DNA of 36,022 nucleotides from IMG/VR virus record IMGVR_UViG_3300033067_001054, positions 1 to 36,022 of that record; one strand, written 5' to 3'. Below are positions 6,283-35,577 of the stretch, piece by piece. Under the pieces are notes generated by a model. The model did not search any database. It was given only the letters and a program-made list of their open reading frames with translations, and was not told where the DNA came from. Position 1 is the first letter of the stretch. Every line of letters begins with the position of its first letter. The position numbers and the translations under genes are program-made. The DNA is from a virus (Duplodnaviria > Caudoviricetes).

Positions 6283-6324
6283 CGAATCCCGGCCGACCAC
6301 CGGGACAGGATGTCAGTGCTGACA

Positions 6325-6360
6325 GCGGGGGAGGGTGTCGGCCCTCCCCCGCACTTCCTT
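6325..6360 (+). terminator. 11-bp stem-loop, probable attenuator or terminator
   Basis: GCGGGGGAGGG-TGTCGG-CCCTCCCCCGC followed by acttcctt. Confidence 0.55.
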
Positions 6361-6378
6361 CCGACAAAGGACAATCCG

Positions 6379-7548
6379 ATGACCGACCTGATCTGCCTCG
6401 ACCTCGGGGCCGAGACCGTTTCGCCGCCCGGCTTTGTGCCGATGGGCCACGACCACGGCAGTGAAATCTATCCGCTGGCCTATCCCGACGACAGCGTCGA
6501 CGTGATCCGCGCCAGCCATGTGCTGGAGCATTTTCCTCACGGCGAAGTGCCGAACGTCGTCAAAGAATGGGCGCGGGCGTTGAAACCTGGCGGCGTGCTC
6601 AAGATCGCCGTCCCGAATTTCGAGTACATCGCCAAGGCCTATGTCGAGGGGCAGGAGCTGCCGCTCGAAGGCTACACGATGGGCGGCCAGACGGACGCCG
6701 ACGACTTCCATAAGTCGCTGTTCGACGCCAATACGCTGGTCGACCTGTTCCGCGGGGCCGGGCTGACGGACATCGGCCCCTGGGACAGCGACTGCGACGA
6801 CTGCTCGCGCCTGCCGGTGTCGCTCAACCTGCGGGCCGTGAAGCCGGTCGCGATTGAGGCCGGTTCGTTCAAGATCGCGGCGGTCATGTCCATGCCGCGG
6901 CTCGGGTTTACCGACAATTTCATGAGCGCCCAGCAAGCGCTCAACAGGATGGGGATCGAGGTCAACACGTTCACTGGGGCCTTCTGGGGGCAGTGCCTGG
7001 AACGCGGCCTCGAGGACATGATCGCCAAGGGCTACGACTACATCCTGACGATCGACTACGACACCGTGTTCACGGCGCAGAACGTCTCGACGCTGATCCG
7101 GTTGATGATCCTCCACCCCGAGGCGGATGCGATCGCCCCGCTGCAGTCGGCGCGCGGCTGGTCGTCGCCGCTGATGACGATCAAGTTGCCCGATGGCATG
7201 GACCCGAACGCGGTCCCGCGGAACTTCTTCGACGGCGACCTGACACAATTGAAGACCGGGCACTTCGGACTGACGCTGTTGCGCGTCTCGGCGCTCAAGG
7301 ATCTGCCCAAGCCGTGGTTCTGGTCGAAGCCGGCGCCCGACGGCAGCTGGGCGGATGGTCGGGTCGACGATGACATTTACTTTTGGCGCCAGTGGGAAGC
7401 CGCCGGCAAAACGCTGTTCAACGCCAACCGCGTGGTCGTCGGGCATCTCGAGCTGATGATCAAGTGGCCGGGCCGCGACCTCAACACGCATCACCAGCGC
7501 GCCGCCGAGTTCTGGCGCGAAGGACCGACGAAAGGAATCTGGCGATGA
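6379..7548 (+). CDS. Class I SAM methyltransferase fused to a GT-A/GT2-like glycosyltransferase
   Basis: N-terminal LDLGA, DSVDVIRASHVLEH and LKPGGVLKIAVP; C-terminal TIDYD (DxD), HFGLTLL, PKPWF, DDDIYFW and VGH; ATG 6379 has RBS aaagga. Confidence 0.8.
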   Translation: MTDLICLDLGAETVSPPGFVPMGHDHGSEIYPLAYPDDSVDVIRASHVLEHFPHGEVPNVVKEWARALKPGGVLKIAVPNFEYIAKAYVEGQELPLEGYTMGGQTDADDFHKSLFDANTLVDLFRGAGLTDIGPWDSDCDDCSRLPVSLNLRAVKPVAIEAGSFKIAAVMSMPRLGFTDNFMSAQQALNRMGIEVNTFTGAFWGQCLERGLEDMIAKGYDYILTIDYDTVFTAQNVSTLIRLMILHPEADAIAPLQSARGWSSPLMTIKLPDGMDPNAVPRNFFDGDLTQLKTGHFGLTLLRVSALKDLPKPWFWSKPAPDGSWADGRVDDDIYFWRQWEAAGKTLFNANRVVVGHLELMIKWPGRDLNTHHQRAAEFWREGPTKGIWR

Positions 7549-21260: not shown

Positions 21261-21724
21261 TCAAATTCTCCTGTCTGGTTATGTGCGAGCTTGCGACCCA
21301 TCGGGCGCTTAGGCCACTGGGTCTTGCGGTTGAGGATCGGTGCGCGGTCGGCCTTCGGCTTGCGAGGCTTCACGGCGCGCTCTGTGAAGAGCTTTGCCGG
21401 GTCTTCAGTGACGAACAGCAGCCCGATCTCACGGCGCCGCTCTAGGGTCTCCTGAAGCCCGCGCAGGGCATAGAACAGCCAATCGGCTTCCGAGATGAGT
21501 TCGCCACCAGGCATTGGCGCGCGGCGGTCCATGACATCGTGGCAGCGCAGGCAACCGTCAGCCACCGACAGGTCGCTGGCCTTGATGCCGCGACCCGCAT
21601 GGTGGTCCTTCAGATGGCACGGCACGACCGTCTCGCGCTCATCGCGGCAGACGCCGCTAATGCGAAAGGTGCACGGTGCGCCGCGCGATCCGGCAAGGTA
21701 TCTCTGAGAGCGGAGGGCGGTCAT
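21257..21724 (-). CDS. DUF1364/YbcO-like Zn-binding nuclease-domain protein
   Basis: RGAPCTFRISGVC, ETVVPCH, GIKASD and GCLRCHD. Confidence 0.85.
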   Translation of the reverse strand: MTALRSQRYLAGSRGAPCTFRISGVCRDERETVVPCHLKDHHAGRGIKASDLSVADGCLRCHDVMDRRAPMPGGELISEADWLFYALRGLQETLERRREIGLLFVTEDPAKLFTERAVKPRKPKADRAPILNRKTQWPKRPMGRKLAHNQTGEFE

Positions 21725-22230
21725 GCCGCGTTCCGCAGTTCGGTCGGGTCGGCGCCGATCAGATCCCCGACCCAGCGCAGCACGGCCTCCTTGCTCGCTT
21801 GAAACTTCGCCTTGTCCATCGATCGATGATCCTGGCTCATCGCGTGCCAAACGGTGACGATCGACCCCGTGACCTCGACAATCTGATAGGTGTCATAGGG
21901 GCGGATCACCGCGGCGAGCCGTTCGGCCTCTGCCGCCGATTTCGCGACGTGCTGGACCTTGGTCGCGTAGCCGGCGCGGATCAGCGCGACCTTGCGAAGG
22001 TGCTCAGGGCTTGGATAGACCGATGCGAGCCCGTCCGGCAGGCTTTCCCACGCTGCCTTGATGCATGCGAAGTAGTGGGCGTGCGTCTGCTGCGAGCGGA
22101 CGTGCAACTCGTCCAGCGTGTAGGTTTCGCCGACCACGAACCGCTTGTCGGCTTCGCGCGCCCAATAGCGGGTGGCGGGGCGCATGGCCTCGCCGTCCCA
22201 CTGATACCGGAGAGGGAAAGCATCGGCCAT
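21721..22230 (-). CDS. NinB/DUF1367-like recombination-associated protein
   Basis: RSQQTHAHYFA, EHLRKVALIRAGY and MDKAKFQ. Confidence 0.7.
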   Translation of the reverse strand: MADAFPLRYQWDGEAMRPATRYWAREADKRFVVGETYTLDELHVRSQQTHAHYFACIKAAWESLPDGLASVYPSPEHLRKVALIRAGYATKVQHVAKSAAEAERLAAVIRPYDTYQIVEVTGSIVTVWHAMSQDHRSMDKAKFQASKEAVLRWVGDLIGADPTELRNAA

Positions 22231-22409
22231 CAGCCGGCCCTCATCATCGGCGTAAAGTCCTTGAGGCATTCGCCGTAGGTGTCCTGCAGGCGCTCGCGCT
22301 GTGCGCCCTTGGCGTGGTCGCAGAGTGACCACCAGACGGCGACGAGCTCGTCCTTGCTCTCGGCCTTGCGCATCGCGGCGTGGGCTTCTGTCTCTTCGGA
22401 ATCGGTCAT
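22230..22409 (-). CDS. Hypothetical protein
   Basis: 59 aa [10 protein letters not shown]...MMRAG read by hand; fills the gap with overlaps at both ends. Confidence 0.65.
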
Positions 22410-23314
22410 GCTGCTTCGTCCCGTTCCATGCGGTCAAACTGGTCGGTCGGATCGACGGGGCCGCCCATGTCGCCGGGGAAGCTGTCATCATCTTGCGTCA
22501 ACGCCAATTCGCGCTGATCGCGTTCGGCCTTGAGCGCGCTCTGGAGGTTCGAGGGCAGCGCACGGGCGGCGTCGAGGACGTTGCCCTGCGACCAGAACTT
22601 GTCGAATGCAGCCTTATCGGCCAGCCTCTTGTTGGCGGCAGACAGCCGGTCAAACATCGCCTGATGATCGACGTTCGCGGGCGCAGGCTGGGTCTGAGAC
22701 TGCGGTGCCGGTTCGCTCGGCTCGTTCGATGTCTGCGCCATTTCGTCGGACGTGTAGAGCCCCGACAACTCCTGCGGGAATGCCTTGCGCAGCGCCAGCG
22801 CCTCAGCGCACTTGGCGACCATGACATCGCCCATCGTTCCCCACATGCGGGTGAGGCTGCCGTCCTTGGTGCGTCCGGCATAGCTGTTGAAGCGGGCTAC
22901 GCCGAAACACGGTTCCGAAAAGTCTGCACGGAGAACGCCGACCTTGGCGGCGACAGGCGGTTCGCTCGACAGCCAGGCATCCGTCCACTGGCCATCGGCG
23001 CCGCACCAGAACGGGCCGACCTGACCGGCATATTTGCCGCTCCGCTCAGCGATCAGACGGAAGCCGTCAATGCTTGTCTGCACCGCCATGACCTCGCGCT
23101 TCTGCACGCCGTCCCAGCGCTTGATCGCGTAAATCTGACGCGCAAACGGGTCGAGGCCGGTGCGCTTGCACTGGTGGAGGAAGAGCTGCAATTCATCGTC
23201 GGTCGCGCCCTTGGCAATGGTGCGCTTGATGAGGTCGATCTGCTCGACATTGAAAGTGGTGACAGGGGCAAGGGCCGTGGCCCGAGCGTCGTTGAGTGCA
23301 ACAGCGTTTGCCAT
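22406..23314 (-). CDS. bet: Phage recombination protein Bet (RecT family single-strand annealing protein)
   Basis: [41 protein letters not shown] and [22 protein letters not shown]. Confidence 0.95.
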
Positions 23315-24015
23315 CACAGAGCCTTCTTTTCTTCGTGGATAATGAAGCCGGGGATCTCACGCTTACCGGCGCGCACATCGTCGGCGGCGAGTTGCTGGAC
23401 CATCGCGGCGAACTCATCGCGCTTCGCGGCCCAATAGTGCTTGATTGCGGCGTTGAGGTCGGTCAGTTCGGCGCGGTACGTGGTGCGCAGCCCGAGCCCA
23501 GTGGTGGCGCGCTTCTCCTGCCGCTTGGCAAAGTCGGCGGCGTCCTTGGCCAGCGCCAGCTTCTCTTCGGCCTCTTCGCGGGCCTCAAGGTTGCCGGCAG
23601 ACGCGCGCATGGCCTCTTCGGCTTCGCGGCGCAGACGTTCCTCTTCCTCGCGGGCCTTGCGTGCGGCCTCTTCCTTGATGCGGGCCTGTTCAGCCTTGAA
23701 CGCGGCGCGCGGCCCATTCAGCGCCTCGCGCGCCAGCACCAGCTTGCCCTTCTTGGGCTGGATCAGCGGATTGTATCGATCCTGGATGGCCTGCACCTGC
23801 TCATCGAGCGGGGCCTTTTCCTCGACGCGCAAGGCATCGAGGCGCTTGACGACATCCGCAATGGCCTTGTCGAGCTTGTCGAGAGCATCGCACTGTTCCT
23901 GCGACTGGATCGGTTCGCCATCGGCCCAGTTCTTGGCCTCGGCATAGAGGTCTTCAGCTTCGAGGCTCAATTCCTCGAAAGGCGTGATGTTGCGAAGCGG
24001 CTGAACGGCGTTCAT
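23314..24015 (-). CDS. Coiled-coil protein upstream of bet
   Basis: 233 aa, long E/K/R/A coiled coil, C-terminal IPGF. Confidence 0.8.
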
Positions 24016-27290: not shown

Positions 27291-27575
27291 ATGACTCGTC
27301 ACCGTAAGGGACTGAAACCACTTTCGCAGACGGGCTTGCACCGCGCTCCGAAAAACCCTCGACAGCGCCAGTTTGCCGAAGGCGGCGCCAAGACGAAGGG
27401 CACTGTCCTTGAGGCGTTCAACCAGCGGCAAGACGATCGCCAGCTTCACCCAACGAAGGGCTTCCGCGAACTCAGCGTGAAGCGTGGCCGCGCGCAATTG
27501 CTCATCTCCGAAATCATGCAGGGCTTTGGCCGGCCGCTTCACCTGCAGCGTCGTTTCTTGGTGGAGGGCTACTAA
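27291..27575 (+). CDS. Basic hypothetical protein
   Basis: 94 aa, RBS aagga, LHPTKGFR. Confidence 0.7.
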   Translation: MTRHRKGLKPLSQTGLHRAPKNPRQRQFAEGGAKTKGTVLEAFNQRQDDRQLHPTKGFRELSVKRGRAQLLISEIMQGFGRPLHLQRRFLVEGY

Positions 27576-28636: not shown

Positions 28637-29274
28637 TTGCCGCGCTCTACGTCAAAACTGGCGGGTCGTATTTTGGCCTCGGCGGCGTTGATCCGTGGGA
28701 CGAGGCGAGGGACGCACGCGCCTATGCCGGGCCTCATCCGGTTGTCGCGCACCCGCCATGCCAGCGCTGGGGAAAGCTCTGGGCCGGCCAGCCGCTCTGG
28801 ATCAAGCGCACCGGCCAACGGAAGGTCAAGGGCGACGACGGCGGGTGCTTTGCCGCTGCTCTCGATGCTGTGCGTACTTTTGGCGGCGTGCTGGAACATC
28901 CGGAGGGCAGCCATGCCTGGGCGCATTTTGGCCTCAACAAGCCGCCGCGGACAGGTGGGTGGGTGCCTGCTGACTTTTTCGGCGGCTGGACGTGCTGCGT
29001 TGAACAGGGGCGCTACGGACACTACGCCCGCAAGCCGACATGGCTTCTCGCCTATCGCGTCGATTTGCGCGAACTGCGCTGGGGTAAATCTGAAGCGCGC
29101 CTGGACCCGGCTGTTGTCGCTCGCATGGGGCTTAAGCGCGCCAAGCGCCTCGGTGAGCTTGGTGCTCGCGGTGGCGGCAAGGACAGTGCCCCGCGTATTG
29201 GAACGCCGACCGAGTTCCGCGACCTGCTGATCTCGATAGCGTCAACTGCAAACCCGATGAGGGCCGCAGCATGA
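28633..29274 (+). CDS. Cytosine-C5 methyltransferase-like protein (degenerate motif I)
   Basis: VVAHPPC (motif IV), VLEHP (motif VI-like) and QGRYGHYARKPTWL (motif VIII-like). Confidence 0.65.
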   Translation: MIAALYVKTGGSYFGLGGVDPWDEARDARAYAGPHPVVAHPPCQRWGKLWAGQPLWIKRTGQRKVKGDDGGCFAAALDAVRTFGGVLEHPEGSHAWAHFGLNKPPRTGGWVPADFFGGWTCCVEQGRYGHYARKPTWLLAYRVDLRELRWGKSEARLDPAVVARMGLKRAKRLGELGARGGGKDSAPRIGTPTEFRDLLISIASTANPMRAAA

Positions 29275-29435
29275 GCGCACAAACCCGCGACCGCGAGATC
29301 GTCGACCTCGAGCACAAGCGCCAGGCCACCACGGCCCAGCTTCTGCGCGAGCTGCGCAACCGCGGCAAGCGGCTGCCCCGCTCAACGGAGCGCGTCCTTA
29401 GCGCGATGGTCAGGCCGGGGAGGGCGGGGGCGTGA
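29271..29435 (+). CDS. Hypothetical protein
   Basis: 54 aa, coupled at both ends. Confidence 0.6.
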   Translation: MSAQTRDREIVDLEHKRQATTAQLLRELRNRGKRLPRSTERVLSAMVRPGRAGA

Positions 29436-30304
29436 CTGTCGATCGTCCAGTTCTTCGCTGGCATGGTGGGAAATGGATGCTTGGGCCCTGGATCATCGAA
29501 CATTTCCCGTCGCATCGCGTCTACGTGGAGCCATTCGGAGGCGCCGCCAGCGTGCTGATGCGCAAAGAGCGCTGCTACGCGGAAGTCTACAACGACCTGG
29601 ACGACGACGTCGTGAACCTCTTCCGGGTGTTGCGCGACGACGTGTTGCGCGACCGCCTAGTGATTGCACTTCGCCTCACGCCGTTCGCAAGGACCGAGTT
29701 CAATGACGCGTACGAAGCGGCAGGCGAACCGGTTGAGCGCGCCAGGCGGCTTGTCGTGCGTTCGTTTATGGGCTTCGGTTCGAATGGGCACAACATCAAG
29801 GCCAAGACCGGCTTCCGCAGCAACTGCAAGCGCACCGGCACCTCGCCGGCACGCGACTGGACCAACTACGCTGACGGGATAGCGCCCGTCGGGCAGCGTC
29901 TCGCCGGGGTCGTCATCGAAAACAAAGACGCTGTTGATCTGATGGCGCAGCACGACGGCGTCGACACGCTGTTCTATGTCGACCCGCCTTACATGGTCGA
30001 CACTCGCTCGCTCAAGAATCCGTACGATATCAAATATCGCGGAGGCATGTACGCCCACGAAATGGACGACGCCGATCACGACCGACTTCTGTCTGCCTTG
30101 GTCGGGCTGAGAGGCATGGTTGTGCTCTCGGGCTACCCTCATTCGCTTTACGATGAGCGGCTCGCTGACTGGCGACGGGTAGAGAAGGAAGCTTTGGCCG
30201 ACGGAGCGCGTCCTCGCATCGAGGTGCTTTGGATCAATCCTGCCTGCGCTGCTCGGCTGGATGCTGAGCAGGCACAATTGTCACTGCTGGATGGTGTCGC
30301 ATGA
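29432..30304 (+). CDS. DNA adenine methyltransferase (Dam/D12 class)
   Basis: LRWHGGKW, YVEPFGGAASV, EVYNDL, FYVDPPY and EVLWIN. Confidence 0.93.
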   Translation: MTVDRPVLRWHGGKWMLGPWIIEHFPSHRVYVEPFGGAASVLMRKERCYAEVYNDLDDDVVNLFRVLRDDVLRDRLVIALRLTPFARTEFNDAYEAAGEPVERARRLVVRSFMGFGSNGHNIKAKTGFRSNCKRTGTSPARDWTNYADGIAPVGQRLAGVVIENKDAVDLMAQHDGVDTLFYVDPPYMVDTRSLKNPYDIKYRGGMYAHEMDDADHDRLLSALVGLRGMVVLSGYPHSLYDERLADWRRVEKEALADGARPRIEVLWINPACAARLDAEQAQLSLLDGVA

Positions 30305-30888
30305 CGGTTGTTGCATCGAACTACGCCCGCAAGGAAAACGATCTCTACCAGACGGAGCCTTGGGCGACGGAGGCGCTGTTGCGTCATTTCCCCGTCGGCA
30401 TGTCCTCGCTCGTCTGGGAACCTGCGGCGGGAAATCACCTCATCGTCGACGTGCTTCGCGAGCACGGCGCGGTCGTCCGCGCCACCGACATTGCGACCTA
30501 CGATCGGCCGCACGATTGCCTGTTCAACTTCCTTGTCGAGGAGCCGCATTTCGGCGGCTGGGACGACCCAACCCATCTTATCACCAACCCGCCATATGGG
30601 AAGGGAAACAGAGACGCGGTCAGGTTCGCGGAGAACGCGCTGAAAGCTTGTTCTGGCGTCGTTGCGCTGCTCCTCACGGCCAAGTTCGACTTCGGAAAGA
30701 CTCGCCGGCACCTGTTCCGCGACAACCCACGCTTCTGCGCCAAGATCGCGCTCGTTGATCGTATCCAGTGGTTTCCCGGCGACACGTCAGGGACCGAAGA
30801 TCACGCTTGGTACGTCTGGGACACCGCCGAGCGTGTCGAAAGCCAGTACGGCAAGCCGATCATGTTGTGGGAGGGCAAGGTCGCATGA
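30301..30888 (+). CDS. Small N6-adenine DNA methyltransferase
   Basis: DLYQTEPW, VWEPAAG, ATDI, ITNPPY and AWYVWD. Confidence 0.85.
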   Translation: MTVVASNYARKENDLYQTEPWATEALLRHFPVGMSSLVWEPAAGNHLIVDVLREHGAVVRATDIATYDRPHDCLFNFLVEEPHFGGWDDPTHLITNPPYGKGNRDAVRFAENALKACSGVVALLLTAKFDFGKTRRHLFRDNPRFCAKIALVDRIQWFPGDTSGTEDHAWYVWDTAERVESQYGKPIMLWEGKVA

Positions 30889-31070: not shown

Positions 31071-31219
31071 AAGACACGACCTTCACCCTCTCCGAAATCA
31101 CCGATGCGATGGGCAAGGCATGGGCCAAGCTTTCGCTCAAAGACCGCGCAACTGCCGATCGTGAGTTGCGGATCTACACCGATCACGTCGTCGACATCCT
31201 CAAGAGTAAGGGCAAATGA
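31067..31219 (+). CDS. Hypothetical protein
   Basis: 50 aa MKDTTFTLSE..., ATGA-coupled. Confidence 0.55.
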   Translation: MKDTTFTLSEITDAMGKAWAKLSLKDRATADRELRIYTDHVVDILKSKGK

Positions 31220-31274
31220 ACCTCGCAACGCTCGCCGGCCAGCCATACCAACTTCCGATGTTTGAGGAAGCCGC

Positions 31275-31646
31275 ATGATCGATCCCAACCACATCGGCGC
31301 ATTCGACGGCATGTCCGATCCCAAGCCAAAGCGCGGGGGTCGTCGCTCAAAGCAGAAAGGCGACCGCATGGAACGCGAGGTCGTCAACCGCTTCCTCGCC
31401 GCTGGCGTGAGCTCTGAGAGGGTGCCCTTGTCGGGCGCTGCCGGTGGTTCCTACACAGGCGACCTTACCGTCGTCGTCAACAACCAGGATTGGCTTGGCG
31501 AGTGCAAGGCGAGGGCTGACGGCTTTCGCCAGCAATACGACTGGCTAGAAGGCAACCGGCTCCTGTTCCTCAAGGCAGATCGCAGGGCAACGCTTGTCTG
31601 CATGACGCTTGAGGACTTCATCACCATCATACGAGGTCGCAAATGA
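31275..31646 (+). CDS. Holliday junction resolvase-like PD-(D/E)xK nuclease
   Basis: SKQKGDRMERE, RVPLSGA, GDL, ECK and ADR. Confidence 0.85.
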   Translation: MIDPNHIGAFDGMSDPKPKRGGRRSKQKGDRMEREVVNRFLAAGVSSERVPLSGAAGGSYTGDLTVVVNNQDWLGECKARADGFRQQYDWLEGNRLLFLKADRRATLVCMTLEDFITIIRGRK

Positions 31647-32434
31647 CCTTCCGCAAAGAGGTTCTGGCCGAGGGGGTGGAAGTCTATTGCGGGGACTGTT
31701 TGGAGGTGCTCGCGCACTTGGCAGATGAGTCCGTGGACATGGTATGGACCGATCCCCCCTACGGCCATTCAAACCACGACGGGGACTGGAATGCCCGACT
31801 GAATGCCCACCGGGGCATTGAAGGTCAGCCGATTGCCAATGACGACGGCGACGGCATGCGGCGTGTTGTGGACGGGATGTTGACACAAGCGTCCCGGCTT
31901 TTGAAGGCTGACTGCTGCTGCTGCTGCTGCTGCTGCGGCGGCGGCGGCGGCCCCCGACCTACGTTTGCGTGGGTCGCTGAGCGCATGGATCGCGGTGGGC
32001 TGACCTTCTTCCATAGCGTGATTTGGGACAAGGCAAACCCTGGCCTCGGCTGGCGATACCGGCGACAGCACGAGATGGTAATGATTGCGCACCGTCAAGG
32101 CGGGAAACTTCTTTGGGCGGACCAGAAGCGTGCAGTTCCAAACATATTTACGCTGATGCCACCACGCGAGAGACAGCATCCGAACGAGAAGCCTCTTGGC
32201 CTGATGCGCCACTTTATCGAACTCCATTCGATGGAAGGGCAGGTTGTTCTTGACCCCTTTATGGGGAGCGGCAGCACAGGTGTTGCGGCAATTGAGTTGG
32301 GCCGAAAGTTCATCGGTATTGAGTTGGACGAGAAGCACTTTGCGACAGCTTGCGCGAGACTTGAAGGAGCCCTGTCGCGCCCCTCCATGTTCATCGATCC
32401 CCCCAAGCCCATAAAGCAGGAAGCGTTTCTATGA
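31643..32434 (+). CDS. Beta-class N4C/N6A DNA methyltransferase, array member 1
   Basis: GDCLEVL, WTDPPY, HPNEKP, VLDPFMGSGSTG and FIGIE. Confidence 0.93.
   Translation: MTFRKEVLAEGVEVYCGDCLEVLAHLADESVDMVWTDPPYGHSNHDGDWNARLNAHRGIEGQPIANDDGDGMRRVVDGMLTQASRLLKADCCCCCCCCGGGGGPRPTFAWVAERMDRGGLTFFHSVIWDKANPGLGWRYRRQHEMVMIAHRQGGKLLWADQKRAVPNIFTLMPPRERQHPNEKPLGLMRHFIELHSMEGQVVLDPFMGSGSTGVAAIELGRKFIGIELDEKHFATACARLEGALSRPSMFIDPPKPIKQEAFL
31913..31951 (+). repeat. (TGC)8(GGC)5 microsatellite encoding Cys8-Gly5
   Basis: Read directly from the sequence. Confidence 0.95.
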
Positions 32435-32438
32435 CCTC

Positions 32439-32456
32439 AATCACCATCATCGGAGG
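32439..32456 (+). repeat. 18-bp junction core AATCACCATCATCGGAGG
   Basis: Exact copies at 34256-34273 and 34983-35000; variant atcaccatcatacgagg at 31620-31636. Confidence 0.95.
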
Positions 32457-32462
32457 CAAGCG

Positions 32463-33143
32463 TTGACCTTCCGCAAAGAGGTTCTAGCCGAGGGGGTGGA
32501 GTGTATCCTTGGTGATTGCCTTGAGGTTCTGCCGACGCTTGGCCGGTTTGATGCGGTGGTGACTGATCCGCCTTATGGGATTGGGTTCAAGTATGCCACG
32601 CATGACGATGACCCAACAGCATGGTTTGCTTTGATGGACCGCGTTGTGCCGTTGTGCAAGGCCGCTGCGCCATTTGTTATCATGCCGAGCTGCGCCGTTA
32701 AACGGCTGCCGTGGTGGTATCAGAACCACGGACCCGAATGGATCGTTGCGTGGCACAAGGGTTCGCCCGGCCATATGTCAACGATCGGCTTCAACGACTG
32801 GGAACCGCATGTCGTGTGGGGTCGCCCGACAGTTCCGATGCATGATTACTTTTCGACGCAATGCGGGTTTGACGATAACGGGCACCCGTGCCCAAAGCCC
32901 ATCGAATATTCGATGTGGCTGGTATCTCGAGCCGCCAAACGCGCGCAGTCCATCCTCGATCCTTTCTGCGGAAGCGGCACCACTGGCGTTGCTGCTGTAA
33001 AGCTAGGACGGCGCTTCACGGGCATCGAGATTGATCCCGGCTATTTCGACATTGCCTGCCGTCGCATCGAAGCCGCGCTCAAGCAGCCAGACATGTTCAT
33101 CGACCCTCCCAAGCCCGCAAAGCAGGAGGCGCTGTCGCTATGA
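32463..33143 (+). CDS. Beta-class DNA methyltransferase, array member 2
   Basis: TTG start; VTDPPY, HPCPKP and ILDPFCGSGTTG. Confidence 0.93.
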   Translation: MTFRKEVLAEGVECILGDCLEVLPTLGRFDAVVTDPPYGIGFKYATHDDDPTAWFALMDRVVPLCKAAAPFVIMPSCAVKRLPWWYQNHGPEWIVAWHKGSPGHMSTIGFNDWEPHVVWGRPTVPMHDYFSTQCGFDDNGHPCPKPIEYSMWLVSRAAKRAQSILDPFCGSGTTGVAAVKLGRRFTGIEIDPGYFDIACRRIEAALKQPDMFIDPPKPAKQEALSL

Positions 33144-33177
33144 CCTACGCAACACCAGAGATGAAGGCGAGGGGACA

Positions 33178-33861
33178 GTGACCTACGTTCGCAAAGAGGA
33201 ACTGGCCGAGGGCGTGGTGCTGTACCAGGGCGACTGCCTTGAGGTGCTGCCGACGCTGGGGCGGTTCGATGCTGTGGTGACCGACCCGCCTTATGGGATC
33301 AAGGCGTCTTCCAAGAAGTTCATCAATGGAACCAGCAAGACGAAGAAGGACTATTACGCTGACGTCGAGTGGGACACTGCGCCGCCCCCAAAGGCAACGC
33401 TTGACCTTATCAGGGCGCAGAGCGAGGCGCAAATTCTGTGGGGGGGGAACTACTTTGATCTCCCCCCGGCGCGGTGTTTTTTGGTGTGGGACAAAACCAT
33501 CCACGGCAACAGCTACGCGGATTGCGAGATGGCGTGGACGTCGCTGGACAAGGTGGCTCGCATAAAGCCGCTTAACATGGTCGCGGCCAATATGGACGGG
33601 CGCGTGCATCCCACGCAAAAACCCTTGAAGCTCATGGAATGGTGCCTTGATCAGATACCGAATGCGCGCACTATCCTTGACCCTTTTATGGGCAGCGGCA
33701 CCACTGGCGTTGCCGCCGTCAAGCTAGGACGCCGCTTCACTGGGATTGAAATAGACGAGGGTTATTTCGACATTGCCTGCCGCCGCATCGAAGCCGCGCT
33801 CAAGCAACCGGACATGTTCATCGATCCTCCCAAGCCCATGAAGCAGGAGGCGCTGCTGTGA
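33178..33861 (+). CDS. Beta-class DNA methyltransferase, array member 3
   Basis: GTG start at 33178 aligns with the paralog N-termini; VTDPPY, WGGNYF, HPTQKP and ILDPFMGSGTTG. Confidence 0.93.
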   Translation: MTYVRKEELAEGVVLYQGDCLEVLPTLGRFDAVVTDPPYGIKASSKKFINGTSKTKKDYYADVEWDTAPPPKATLDLIRAQSEAQILWGGNYFDLPPARCFLVWDKTIHGNSYADCEMAWTSLDKVARIKPLNMVAANMDGRVHPTQKPLKLMEWCLDQIPNARTILDPFMGSGTTGVAAVKLGRRFTGIEIDEGYFDIACRRIEAALKQPDMFIDPPKPMKQEALL

Positions 33862-34283
33862 CCCGTGAGCGCATGTCAGCCGCAGAATACGTCAACGCTG
33901 CTGGCGGCTTTGCTGGGCTGGAGAAGCCCAAGAGCAAGTACCGCAATGTTCCAACGGTTGTGGACGGTGTGAGATTTTCAAGCCGCGCGGAAGCCAAGCG
34001 CTGGGACGAGCTTCGCATGCTGGAGAAGGCAGGGGAGATTTTTGACCTCAAGCGGCAGGTGTCATTCCCGCTCTACGCGTTCCCCGGCAAGCTGGTTGGT
34101 CGATACGTTGCGGACTTCACTTATCTCGCTGAGGAAATGAACTCGGACAAATATGCGGGCATCCACCGCATTCTGCACGTTGAAGATGTCAAAGGCGTGC
34201 GCACTGACTTGTTCAAGTGGAAGGCCAAGCACTTCGCTGCACAGTACGGGTACGAAATCACCATCATCGGAGGTCGCAAATGA
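33858..34283 (+). CDS. DUF1064-family putative nuclease
   Basis: SKYRN..T.VDG.RF.S..EA.R, RQV.F, YVADFTY and VEDVKG. Confidence 0.9.
   Translation: MTRERMSAAEYVNAAGGFAGLEKPKSKYRNVPTVVDGVRFSSRAEAKRWDELRMLEKAGEIFDLKRQVSFPLYAFPGKLVGRYVADFTYLAEEMNSDKYAGIHRILHVEDVKGVRTDLFKWKAKHFAAQYGYEITIIGGRK
34256..34273 (+). repeat. 18-bp junction core (left of member 4)
   Basis: aatcaccatcatcggagg inside the 3' end of the DUF1064 gene. Confidence 0.95.
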
Positions 34284-34978
34284 CCTTCCGCAAAGAGGTT
34301 CTAGCCGAGGGGGTGGAGTGTATCCTTGGTGATTGCATTGAAGTTTTGCCCGCGCTTGGCCGGTTTGATGCGTGCGTTACCGATCCGCCTTATGGGATTT
34401 TCAAGAACACTGGCGGGGATGGTAAGATGTTCGGCAAAGAAACGATATATTCCATTGATGATAAAGCGGCACAATGGGATTTTAGGCCAGATGATGACCT
34501 GTTGCATTCTCTAGTTCAATTTAAAGAGTATGTCGTTTGGGGAGGGAACTACTTTGCGGATATTCTCGGAGCATCGAAGGGGGTTCTGGTTTGGGATAAA
34601 AAGACCGGAAACAATAGCTATGCTGATTGCGAGCTTGCTTGGACTAATGCCACAGGCACCACTAGAATCATACATCATCAATGGTGCGGAGCCTTCAAGG
34701 ACAGCGAGCGCGGATTGAGGGCAGAACACCCAACTCAAAAGCCCATAGAAATAATGAAATGGAGCATTGGATTCTGCAAAGCTCAAACAATCCTCGACCC
34801 CTTCATGGGTTCCGGCACCACTGGCGTTGCAGCCGTCAAGCTAGGCCGCAAGTTCACCGGCATTGAGATAGACCCCGGCTACTTCGACATTGCCTGCCGC
34901 CGCATCGAAGCCGCTCTCAAGCAGCCAGACATGTTCATCGACCCTCCCAAGCCCATGAAGCAGGAGGCGTTTCTATGA
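34280..34978 (+). CDS. Beta-class DNA methyltransferase, array member 4
   Basis: ATG 34280; VTDPPY, WGGNYF, HPTQKP and ILDPFMGSGTTG; AT-rich centre. Confidence 0.93.
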   Translation: MTFRKEVLAEGVECILGDCIEVLPALGRFDACVTDPPYGIFKNTGGDGKMFGKETIYSIDDKAAQWDFRPDDDLLHSLVQFKEYVVWGGNYFADILGASKGVLVWDKKTGNNSYADCELAWTNATGTTRIIHHQWCGAFKDSERGLRAEHPTQKPIEIMKWSIGFCKAQTILDPFMGSGTTGVAAVKLGRKFTGIEIDPGYFDIACRRIEAALKQPDMFIDPPKPMKQEAFL

Positions 34979-34982
34979 CCTC

Positions 34983-35000
34983 AATCACCATCATCGGAGG
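34983..35000 (+). repeat. 18-bp junction core (right of member 4)
   Basis: aatcaccatcatcggagg. Confidence 0.95.
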
Positions 35001-35010
35001 CAAGCGCTAG

Positions 35011-35577
35011 ATGGAACTCGCGACATATGCCGAACAGGCCAGCCATTACGCTGCGGTACGTGCGCGTCTCATGGGCATAGTGGCGCCCACACAGGTACGC
35101 CACATGATCCCGGCGCCGGAGCCGCTAGAGCCGCCCAAGAAGCGCACGAAAGAGGAAATTCGCCGGGACCGATTGGCTCGTCGCCGCGCTCGCGCTGCTC
35201 AACTCGCAATGTCCAAGTTCAAGCCTGTGTCTGTCTTTCAGGCCAAAGACCTGCCTAAGGTCACGGTCGAGGCTCATTACGCTTGGGAAGGTGGCCCGGA
35301 AGTGCTGCCGATCCCGGTCCCGCGTTGGAAGCAGATCGTCATTGAAGTAGCGGAACGAGAGAAAATCCTCATCGGGGATTTGATGGTCGACAACCGCGAA
35401 AAGCACGTCGTCGCCGCTCGTGGAGAGATTTTCTACAGGATGCGCCACGAGTGCGGGTTGTCCTATCCCGAGATCGGCAAGCGCATGGGCAACCGGGATC
35501 ACTCAACGGTGATTTGGGGCGTCAAGCGGCACGCGCAGACAATTGGGGGAAAGTCACCCCAAGCACAAACTGGTTAA
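35011..35577 (+). CDS. Protein with DnaA C-terminal (domain IV-like) HTH
   Basis: VVAARGEIFY.MR...GLSYPEIGKRMGNRDHSTVIWG. Confidence 0.85.
   Translation: MELATYAEQASHYAAVRARLMGIVAPTQVRHMIPAPEPLEPPKKRTKEEIRRDRLARRRARAAQLAMSKFKPVSVFQAKDLPKVTVEAHYAWEGGPEVLPIPVPRWKQIVIEVAEREKILIGDLMVDNREKHVVAARGEIFYRMRHECGLSYPEIGKRMGNRDHSTVIWGVKRHAQTIGGKSPQAQTG

Follow-up and report, generated by a model that had tools for sequence, protein, structure and literature searches.

The stretch analysed here, which we call the window, is the entire linear virus record IMGVR_UViG_3300033067_001054 of IMG/VR (Duplodnaviria; Caudoviricetes), 36,022 bases long and with an estimated completeness of about 52%. Because it encodes a terminase, a CI-like repressor, RecT, an exonuclease and a NinB/Orf-like protein, the phage is likely temperate, and its GapR and DUF1376 genes, together with the names on a few matches, point to a putative alphaproteobacterial host. 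The rightward early region holds six DNA methyltransferase (MTase) genes, one of the D12 class, one matching phrog_799 and four of family PF01555 (M1 to M4). The last four belong to an array with the order resolvase, M1, stub, M2, second stub, M3, DUF1064, M4, stub, DnaA_C helix-turn-helix (HTH) gene, in which an 18-bp sequence, the core, recurs at gene junctions.

31216..31278, + strand: stub open reading frame (ORF) of 20 codons; its first 9 residues match those with which the DnaA_C HTH protein begins in relative L003
31275..31646, + strand: Holliday-junction-resolvase-like nuclease, C-terminus FITIIRGRK(stop); phrog_244, with PF24608 slightly below cut-off
31620..31636, + strand: core copy 1, within the resolvase 3' end; 2 mismatches over 17 nucleotides (nt)
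31643..32434, + strand: methyltransferase M1, PF01555; DPPY before DPFMGSG, which we take to be the beta order
32423..32462, + strand: 40-nt exact repeat of 34967-35006 (MTase tail, stub, core)
32431..32466, + strand: stub ORF MTSITIIGGKR(stop), its stop overlapping the TTG of M2
32439..32456, + strand: core copy 2, exact
32463..33143, + strand: methyltransferase M2, PF01555; the 56 nt following the start base are identical to M4
33112..33145, + strand: second boundary, a 34-nt MTase tail with its own GGAGG, exactly matching an unrelated D12-class MTase in L080
33140..33181, + strand: stub ORF MTYATPEMKARGQ(stop) between M2 and M3, without a core
33178..33861, + strand: methyltransferase M3, PF01555, start GTG 33178, with a core on neither side
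33858..34283, + strand: DUF1064 nuclease, C-terminus EITIIGGRK(stop); PF06356, phrog_190
34256..34273, + strand: core copy 3, exact; DUF1064 3' end plus GGAGG, 6 nt upstream of the M4 start
34280..34978, + strand: methyltransferase M4, PF01555; G+C of the middle 0.46
34975..35010, + strand: stub ORF MTSITIIGGKR(stop), its stop flush with ATG 35011
34983..35000, + strand: core copy 4, exact
35011..35577, + strand: DnaA C-terminal HTH protein, PF08299; conserved right flank

The core repeat and the integrity of the array

An earlier reading of this DNA, the original prediction, described the MTase genes as cassettes bracketed by the core, and the geometry that it gave was reproduced when recomputed. 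Exact 18-mer copies lie at 32439-32456, 34256-34273 and 34983-35000, an imperfect copy has 2 mismatches over 17 nt from 31620 (3 over 18 nt from 31619), and the 40-nt exact repeat at 32423 and 34967, the spacings of 820 and 727 bp and the direct abutment of TAG 35008-35010 on ATG 35011 all returned the same values. Each of the four array members is an MTase with an N6_N4_Mtase domain (PF01555). The chance expectation for core matches is 0.00, and four matches were reached in none of 100 shuffles. The statement that the core carries the ribosome-binding motif GGAGG is true of the exact copies, whereas the copy before M1 has GAGG only. The right-hand cores each lie within an 11-codon stub ORF (32431-32466 and 34975-35010). 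M2 and M3 lack cores of their own, and the 1817-bp unit between the cores at 32439 and 34256 holds M2, M3 and DUF1064. Five exact repeats in the array (56, 40, 39, 33 and 32 nt) exceed the core in length.

Read depth bears on whether such an array exists in a single genome. Contigs from sequencing runs were compared with the window, runs with small word shares to it being excluded. Eight listed pieces of run X15, from which the record may derive, are identical to the window; the four MTase middles stand at 35.3, 38.4, 42.3 and 46.8x and the flanks at 43.4-46.1x, so each of the four MTases likely occurs about once per genome. Alternative alleles should sum to approximately 46x, whereas the middles sum to 163x, which makes it improbable that the array arose by collapsing alternative alleles. 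An assembly artefact, in which MTase alleles of co-occurring phages were joined into one contig through shared ends, could draw on the five exact repeats of at least 32 nt, which leave the order ambiguous at k=31, on the mixed populations in X16, X17 and X1, and on the finding that, for M1, M2 and M4 alike, the exact protein is on record from the window contig alone. Among the contigs listed, none spans the whole array, which leaves the gene order provisional. The depths of the X15 middles, each near that of the flanks, the independent contig L002 with the same two-core anatomy, and the lack of any repeat longer than 56 nt nevertheless make such an artefact extremely unlikely.

Shared gene boundaries and exchanged methyltransferase middles

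From the sequence comparisons, the core appears to be the shared 3' end of a nuclease slot, occupied by either the resolvase or DUF1064, plus GGAGG, rather than an att site. The two nucleases are alignable at their ends only, and in the resolvases P0143 and P0002 the first 23 and 15 residues are identical to DUF1064 starts. Since they share both ends, we regard them as alternatives in one slot with conserved boundaries. The original prediction held that excision at the cores would leave a resolvase ending FITIIGGKR and a DUF1064 ending EITIIGGKR; the former is present in the public protein P0003 and the latter in 5 of 11 cluster members. C-termini were available for 25 of 35 resolvase loci and 22 of 24 DUF1064 loci. 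Resolvases end in RK (P0143, P0152), RGRK (P0001, P0002) or KR (P0003), window-type DUF1064 proteins in RK (6/11) or KR (5/11), and the six L002-type DUF1064 proteins in RK (3), RKW (1) or KR (2). All four of the four nuclease-by-ending combinations are observed, which requires either a crossover within the core or parallel change. The five KR-ending DUF1064 proteins were considered as empty sites and rejected, as KR endings are found ahead of an MTase too (L034, M2).

More distant resolvases terminate in FIAIIGGKV (P0144, P0145) or FIELVRGKR (L045), so the core looks like a native gene end in which the GGAGG for the following gene is also contained. In L045 the order is MTase, resolvase, HTH, and this suggests that the 11-codon stub is a collapsed nuclease gene.

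Fused and truncated genes also occur around the slot. P0040 (4 contigs) is a 349-residue fusion of a resolvase N-end and DUF1064, then the HTH gene at the end; two short blocks that flank the DUF1064-to-HTH junction stand in swapped order before the HTH gene, and one break coincides with the core's right edge. Related contigs contain other nuclease and MTase variants that are fused or truncated (P0152, in 5 contigs, P0004, P0007 and P0428), and by these the region appears to rearrange outside the core too.

Shared boundaries are not limited to the core. The 34-nt tail of M2, which includes a GGAGG of its own, recurs without a difference in an unrelated D12-class MTase of L080, and the stub at 31216 is a further example. 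A D12-class MTase in L080 contains a 36-nt unit repeated four times in tandem (L080:1900-2070; RKLPHLS.. repeats).

A second level of variation lies inside the MTase genes. Identities over N-end, middle and C-end are 92/27/92% between M2 and M4 and 82/20/93% between M2 and M3. Of the 16 members in the cluster of the M4 middle, 15 were listed. The 14 of these other than M4 have middles 86-95% identical to that of M4, with N-end identities of 10-63% and C-end identities of 59-72%. Among the best 120 of 4744 matches to the M2 N-end, 114 had a parsable middle, and clustering these at 60% gave 50 groups. All parsable middles were counted because a strict regular expression describing the MTase frame fitted only 6 of the 120. 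These pairwise identities carry the hallmark of MTase domain exchange, namely conserved motif-coding ends with incongruent middles. The 92/27/92% pattern, the M4 middle on foreign ends and the 50 clusters together suggest that most MTase allele diversity arises through exchange of middles inside genes. In M1, a triplet repeat tract at 31912-31953 encodes eight Cys and then five Gly; it is in-frame, so a change in its length would not act as an off-switch.

Gene content at the core junctions of relatives

The original prediction expected related genomes to differ at the cores, and other MTases do stand there in L001, L002 and run X4. L001 has a DUF1064 (94%) and the same left junction as the window, followed by a different MTase start. 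L002 has a DUF1064 (54%) ending EITIIGGKR(stop), a small HTH gene, another MTase, the same stub and an HTH protein that is 100% identical; its direct repeat is 32 bp long, with copies 883 bp apart, and the unit holds two genes. In run X4 the contigs are unbroken over both junctions, the M4 middle is uncovered, and a loose end represents a different MTase start. L001 also carries a Mom-family gene (L001:3827-4606; PF25680, E 1.7e-66) between a small HTH gene and DUF1064, by which another type of DNA-modification gene would seem to use the same region.

The search for empty sites produced one likely case, the DUF1064-to-HTH site in run X17. There a contig covering 34144-34273 (12.7x) stops exactly at the core end and has two continuations, an MTase branch over 34244-34299 (4.7x) and a 2069-nt contig matching from 34983 on (8.05x), with depths that balance (4.7 + 8.05 = 12.75 against 12.7x). 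In the 2069-nt contig, 12 unmatched letters precede the core, and 12 + 18 gives the 30-letter overlap seen throughout such contigs. Because overlap length and depth sums fit, X17 likely carries an empty DUF1064-to-HTH site, as read from the contig geometry and not from the 12 letters themselves. Two further candidates were set aside. The loose end at 34983 in X16 is a DUF1064 end but ambiguous, as X16 also has an L002-type branch, and in X1, which would also fit, the depths fail to add up, with 17x leading into 14.5x. Other X17 pieces share a depth of 754-852x, which suggests a single abundant phage in which the small HTH gene, an M1-like gene and DUF1064 follow one another, the M1-like gene being coreless on both sides. 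In L003 the HTH gene directly follows a 50-residue ORF, nuclease and MTase both being absent between them, and the window stub at 31216 is a remnant of the start of the HTH gene as found in L003.

Six metagenome and four genome matches from the exact pattern scans were set aside as chance on account of their unrelated flanks; the six metagenome loci had no blastn match to the window, and the four genome loci were judged by flanks alone. A search with the MTase start pattern gave 0 matches. Cultured phages yielded MTase-motif matches only (25 records, the 20 listed each covering at most 7% of the query).

Two single contigs place MTase modules in other surroundings. At L034:5546-5927 the core and an MTase start are joined to a truncated small ORF of 79 residues, downstream of a P22-like portal and a GDSL hydrolase; the join falls where the homolog P0383 reads ITIN, which is likely a microhomology. 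At L043:3181-4039 a small HTH gene and an MTase, 99% identical to L002 over 859 nt, sit in the end of a gene in the apparent virion-gene region of a different phage type, and the join shortens a 178-residue protein (25 contigs) to 161 residues (1 contig). We did not accept the pair as proof of spread to other phages: both are single contigs with the join near an end and a truncated gene, and they may be chimeric.

Proposed recombination at short linkers and its alternatives

We propose that the core serves, together with other short linkers, as a place where homology-guided recombination lets related temperate phages exchange, acquire and lose genes, RecT-Exo-Orf being the probable agents, and we give this reading a probability of roughly 0.6. 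The repeat pattern thus likely reflects short-homology recombination at shared linkers and not a new integron-like machine. The window encodes the candidate enzymes:

22406..23317, - strand: RecT-family single-strand annealing protein, candidate recombinase; PF03837
23314..24015, - strand: exonuclease, likely RecT partner; phrog_10477
21721..22491, - strand: NinB/Orf-like recombination mediator, start uncertain; phrog_319, E 2e-5

In favour of this proposal, a short gene-boundary sequence is common to unrelated alternative genes, both at the nuclease ends and in the 34-nt tail, and relatives vary between these boundaries, with other alleles in L001, L002 and X4, a likely empty site in X17 by contig geometry, and the four nuclease-by-ending combinations. 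Two unrelated nucleases occupy the slot and have both of its ends in common, with both endings on both nucleases; different MTases follow the same junction, and MTase middles are exchanged between conserved coding ends. Hypothetically, the array required several steps. A nuclease gene downstream of an MTase would first have collapsed to the 11-codon stub, keeping the GGAGG for the next gene. Recombination inside MTase ends, between phages of different gene order, could then have placed a core on both sides, and unequal crossovers at the cores and the longer repeats may have generated the four-gene array and the filled and empty alleles. Exchange at the linkers and at conserved MTase ends would be carried out by RecT-Exo-Orf during co-infection or prophage encounter, and selection for methylation against host restriction, a function presumed here, would likely maintain the diversity.

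Several observations weigh against this proposal. The minimum homology reported for Red-beta is 23-27 bp (PMC3945230), so that the 18-bp core alone should be a weak substrate. Long flanking homology could spread filled and empty alleles without the core. The likely empty site comes from one run only, X17, a KR ending is no proof of an empty site, and the core was found in only three other IMG/VR contigs. No circle junction was seen in the contigs of X15, X4, X1 and X17 or in exact pattern scans, although rare forms drop from contigs. The circles that the original prediction envisaged would break contigs at 34256, and in these four runs contigs cross that left core unbroken (X16 being indeterminable from the rows listed).

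Much of this would also fit a passive relic, in which one or two accidents in the past duplicated the core, while filled and empty alleles and MTase middles spread by ordinary recombination in long flanking homology (DUF1064, the HTH gene, the MTase ends). Crossovers would then seldom fall in the core, which would be retained solely for its ribosome-binding motif. Longer exact repeats (32-56 nt) lie close by, the flanks are nearly identical between alleles (100% for the L002 HTH protein), no circle junction was seen, and breaks occur away from the core too (P0040, P0152, P0007). All four nuclease-by-ending combinations nevertheless occur, four different upstream sequences meet the core at the same ATCACC position, and the P0004 break is also at the left edge of the core. 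We consider a passive relic unlikely but not negligible, a weight that it keeps because 18 bp falls under the 23-27 bp cited for Red-beta. At the opposite extreme, the core could be an evolved, active entry site of population-wide MTase shuffling, where gene-end linkers carried on stubs allow RecT to excise MTase circles and deliver them, with their ribosome-binding motif, into gene ends that match by a few bases, including virion regions of other phage types (L034, L043), the middles being reshuffled from at least 50 types. If true, anti-restriction methylation patterns would be generated in an integron-like but recombinase-free manner; we regard this as distinctly unlikely.

A dedicated site-specific system, in which an integrase from the missing part of the genome or from the host excises and inserts MTase circles at an att-like core, is very unlikely. 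Exact 18-bp direct repeats do flank M4, X17 offers one likely precise empty site, MTase modules stand at core-like sequence in virion-gene regions of L034 and L043, and only about 52% of the record is present. Those two loci are, however, single contigs whose joins truncate a gene. The original prediction had spoken of integron-like, single-gene cassettes, yet the units between cores (820, 1817, 727 and, in L002, 883 bp) hold 1, 3, 1 and 2 genes, and M2 and M3 are unbracketed. Its description of the array as integrase-free agrees with the window, where PF00589 had 0 matches at E<=1, PF00239 was absent and no tyrosine or serine recombinase family was found, but applies to this partial record only. 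An attC site is an imperfect palindrome that folds as a single-strand hairpin with paired R boxes. Here eight junction strands folded no better than shuffles (z -0.47 to +1.58), and no RYYYAAC lay within 150 nt of any of the four cores. No fixed crossover point was found in L002, L034, L043 and P0045, where the joins differ: at the ITI microhomology in L034, inside the core in L043 and after the core in L002, with shared lengths of approximately 10 to 32 nt.

The original prediction did not recognise a described system, but the general mechanism of recombination at short linkers is in print (PMC3029335, PMC2839356). The locus works like Island3 boundary exchange, promoter early stem-loop (PeSL) cassettes and target recognition domain (TRD) movement, and it fails the attC tests. 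In gene 68 of mycobacteriophage Island3, an extra gene lies between duplicated coding 3' ends and is ascribed to boundary-sequence recombination (PMC3029335). By comparison, the repeat here is 18 bp (32 in L002) and includes GGAGG, its second copy is in an 11-codon stub and not at the end of the inserted gene, and the genes carried form a four-member array from a hypervariable enzyme family. In the PeSL cassettes of the T4-type phages RB49 and phi1, genes are shuffled between expression signals that recur; mini-circles have been demonstrated, no integrase has been identified, and the authors liken PeSLs to integrons (PMC2839356). As there, repeated expression signals in a variable region would serve as recombination sites for gene gain and loss. 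Unlike the promoter and terminator of those lytic phages, the linker here is a coding end plus ribosome-binding motif in a temperate phage; it lies within coding sequence and shows no significant fold (a promoter scan was not run), and assembled contigs and exact pattern scans gave no counterpart to the mini-circles.

TRD movement between Type III mod genes proceeds by recombination at DNA encoding conserved motifs (PMC3467074) and would explain the middle swaps. In both cases a variable MTase middle moves, and its closest relatives differ from those of the ends; unlike that system, the genes here are orphan phage MTases for which no restriction partner was identified, exchange takes in the entire interval from DPPY to DPF, and the change in specificity is putative. 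The mosaicism attributed to Rad52-like phage recombinases (PMC3945230) likewise involves temperate phages with a RecT-family annealing protein, exonuclease and Orf, and small-fragment exchange at short homologies; the core here is shorter than 23-27 bp, and RecT action at the locus is putative. Phage-borne integrons need intI and attC (PMC9892861). They share with the array tandem promoter-less genes, a short repeat between them and content that varies between genomes, and they differ from it in that the window has no integron integrase, no attC hairpin or box pair, no fixed crossover and multi-gene units.

Linker-mediated modular shuffling is therefore already known, and what is new is its application to a hypervariable methyltransferase family. 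A literature search, with subscription journals mostly outside its coverage, returned no description of the locus, the linker or an MTase array with the linker. The locus offers population evidence in a small space: two unrelated nucleases have both ends in common, all four recombinant types across an 18-bp linker are represented, and a single sample contains filled alleles along with likely empty ones. The process is thereby connected with one function, as phage DNA methylation appears to be diversified at two levels, gene number and enzyme middle. Testable questions follow, namely whether RecT uses an 18-bp gene-end linker and whether four stacked MTases broaden escape from host restriction.

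Upstream of the array, the same variable region contains the two remaining MTase genes:

29432..30888, + strand: D12-class MTase (29432-30304) and phrog_799 MTase (30301-30888)

Elsewhere in the window, a 24-nt inverted repeat (27388-27411 and 29178-29201), 88% complementary, has its arms 1766 nt apart, and a SAM-dependent methyltransferase fused to a weak glycosyltransferase-like domain is encoded at 6310-7548, within the head-gene cluster.

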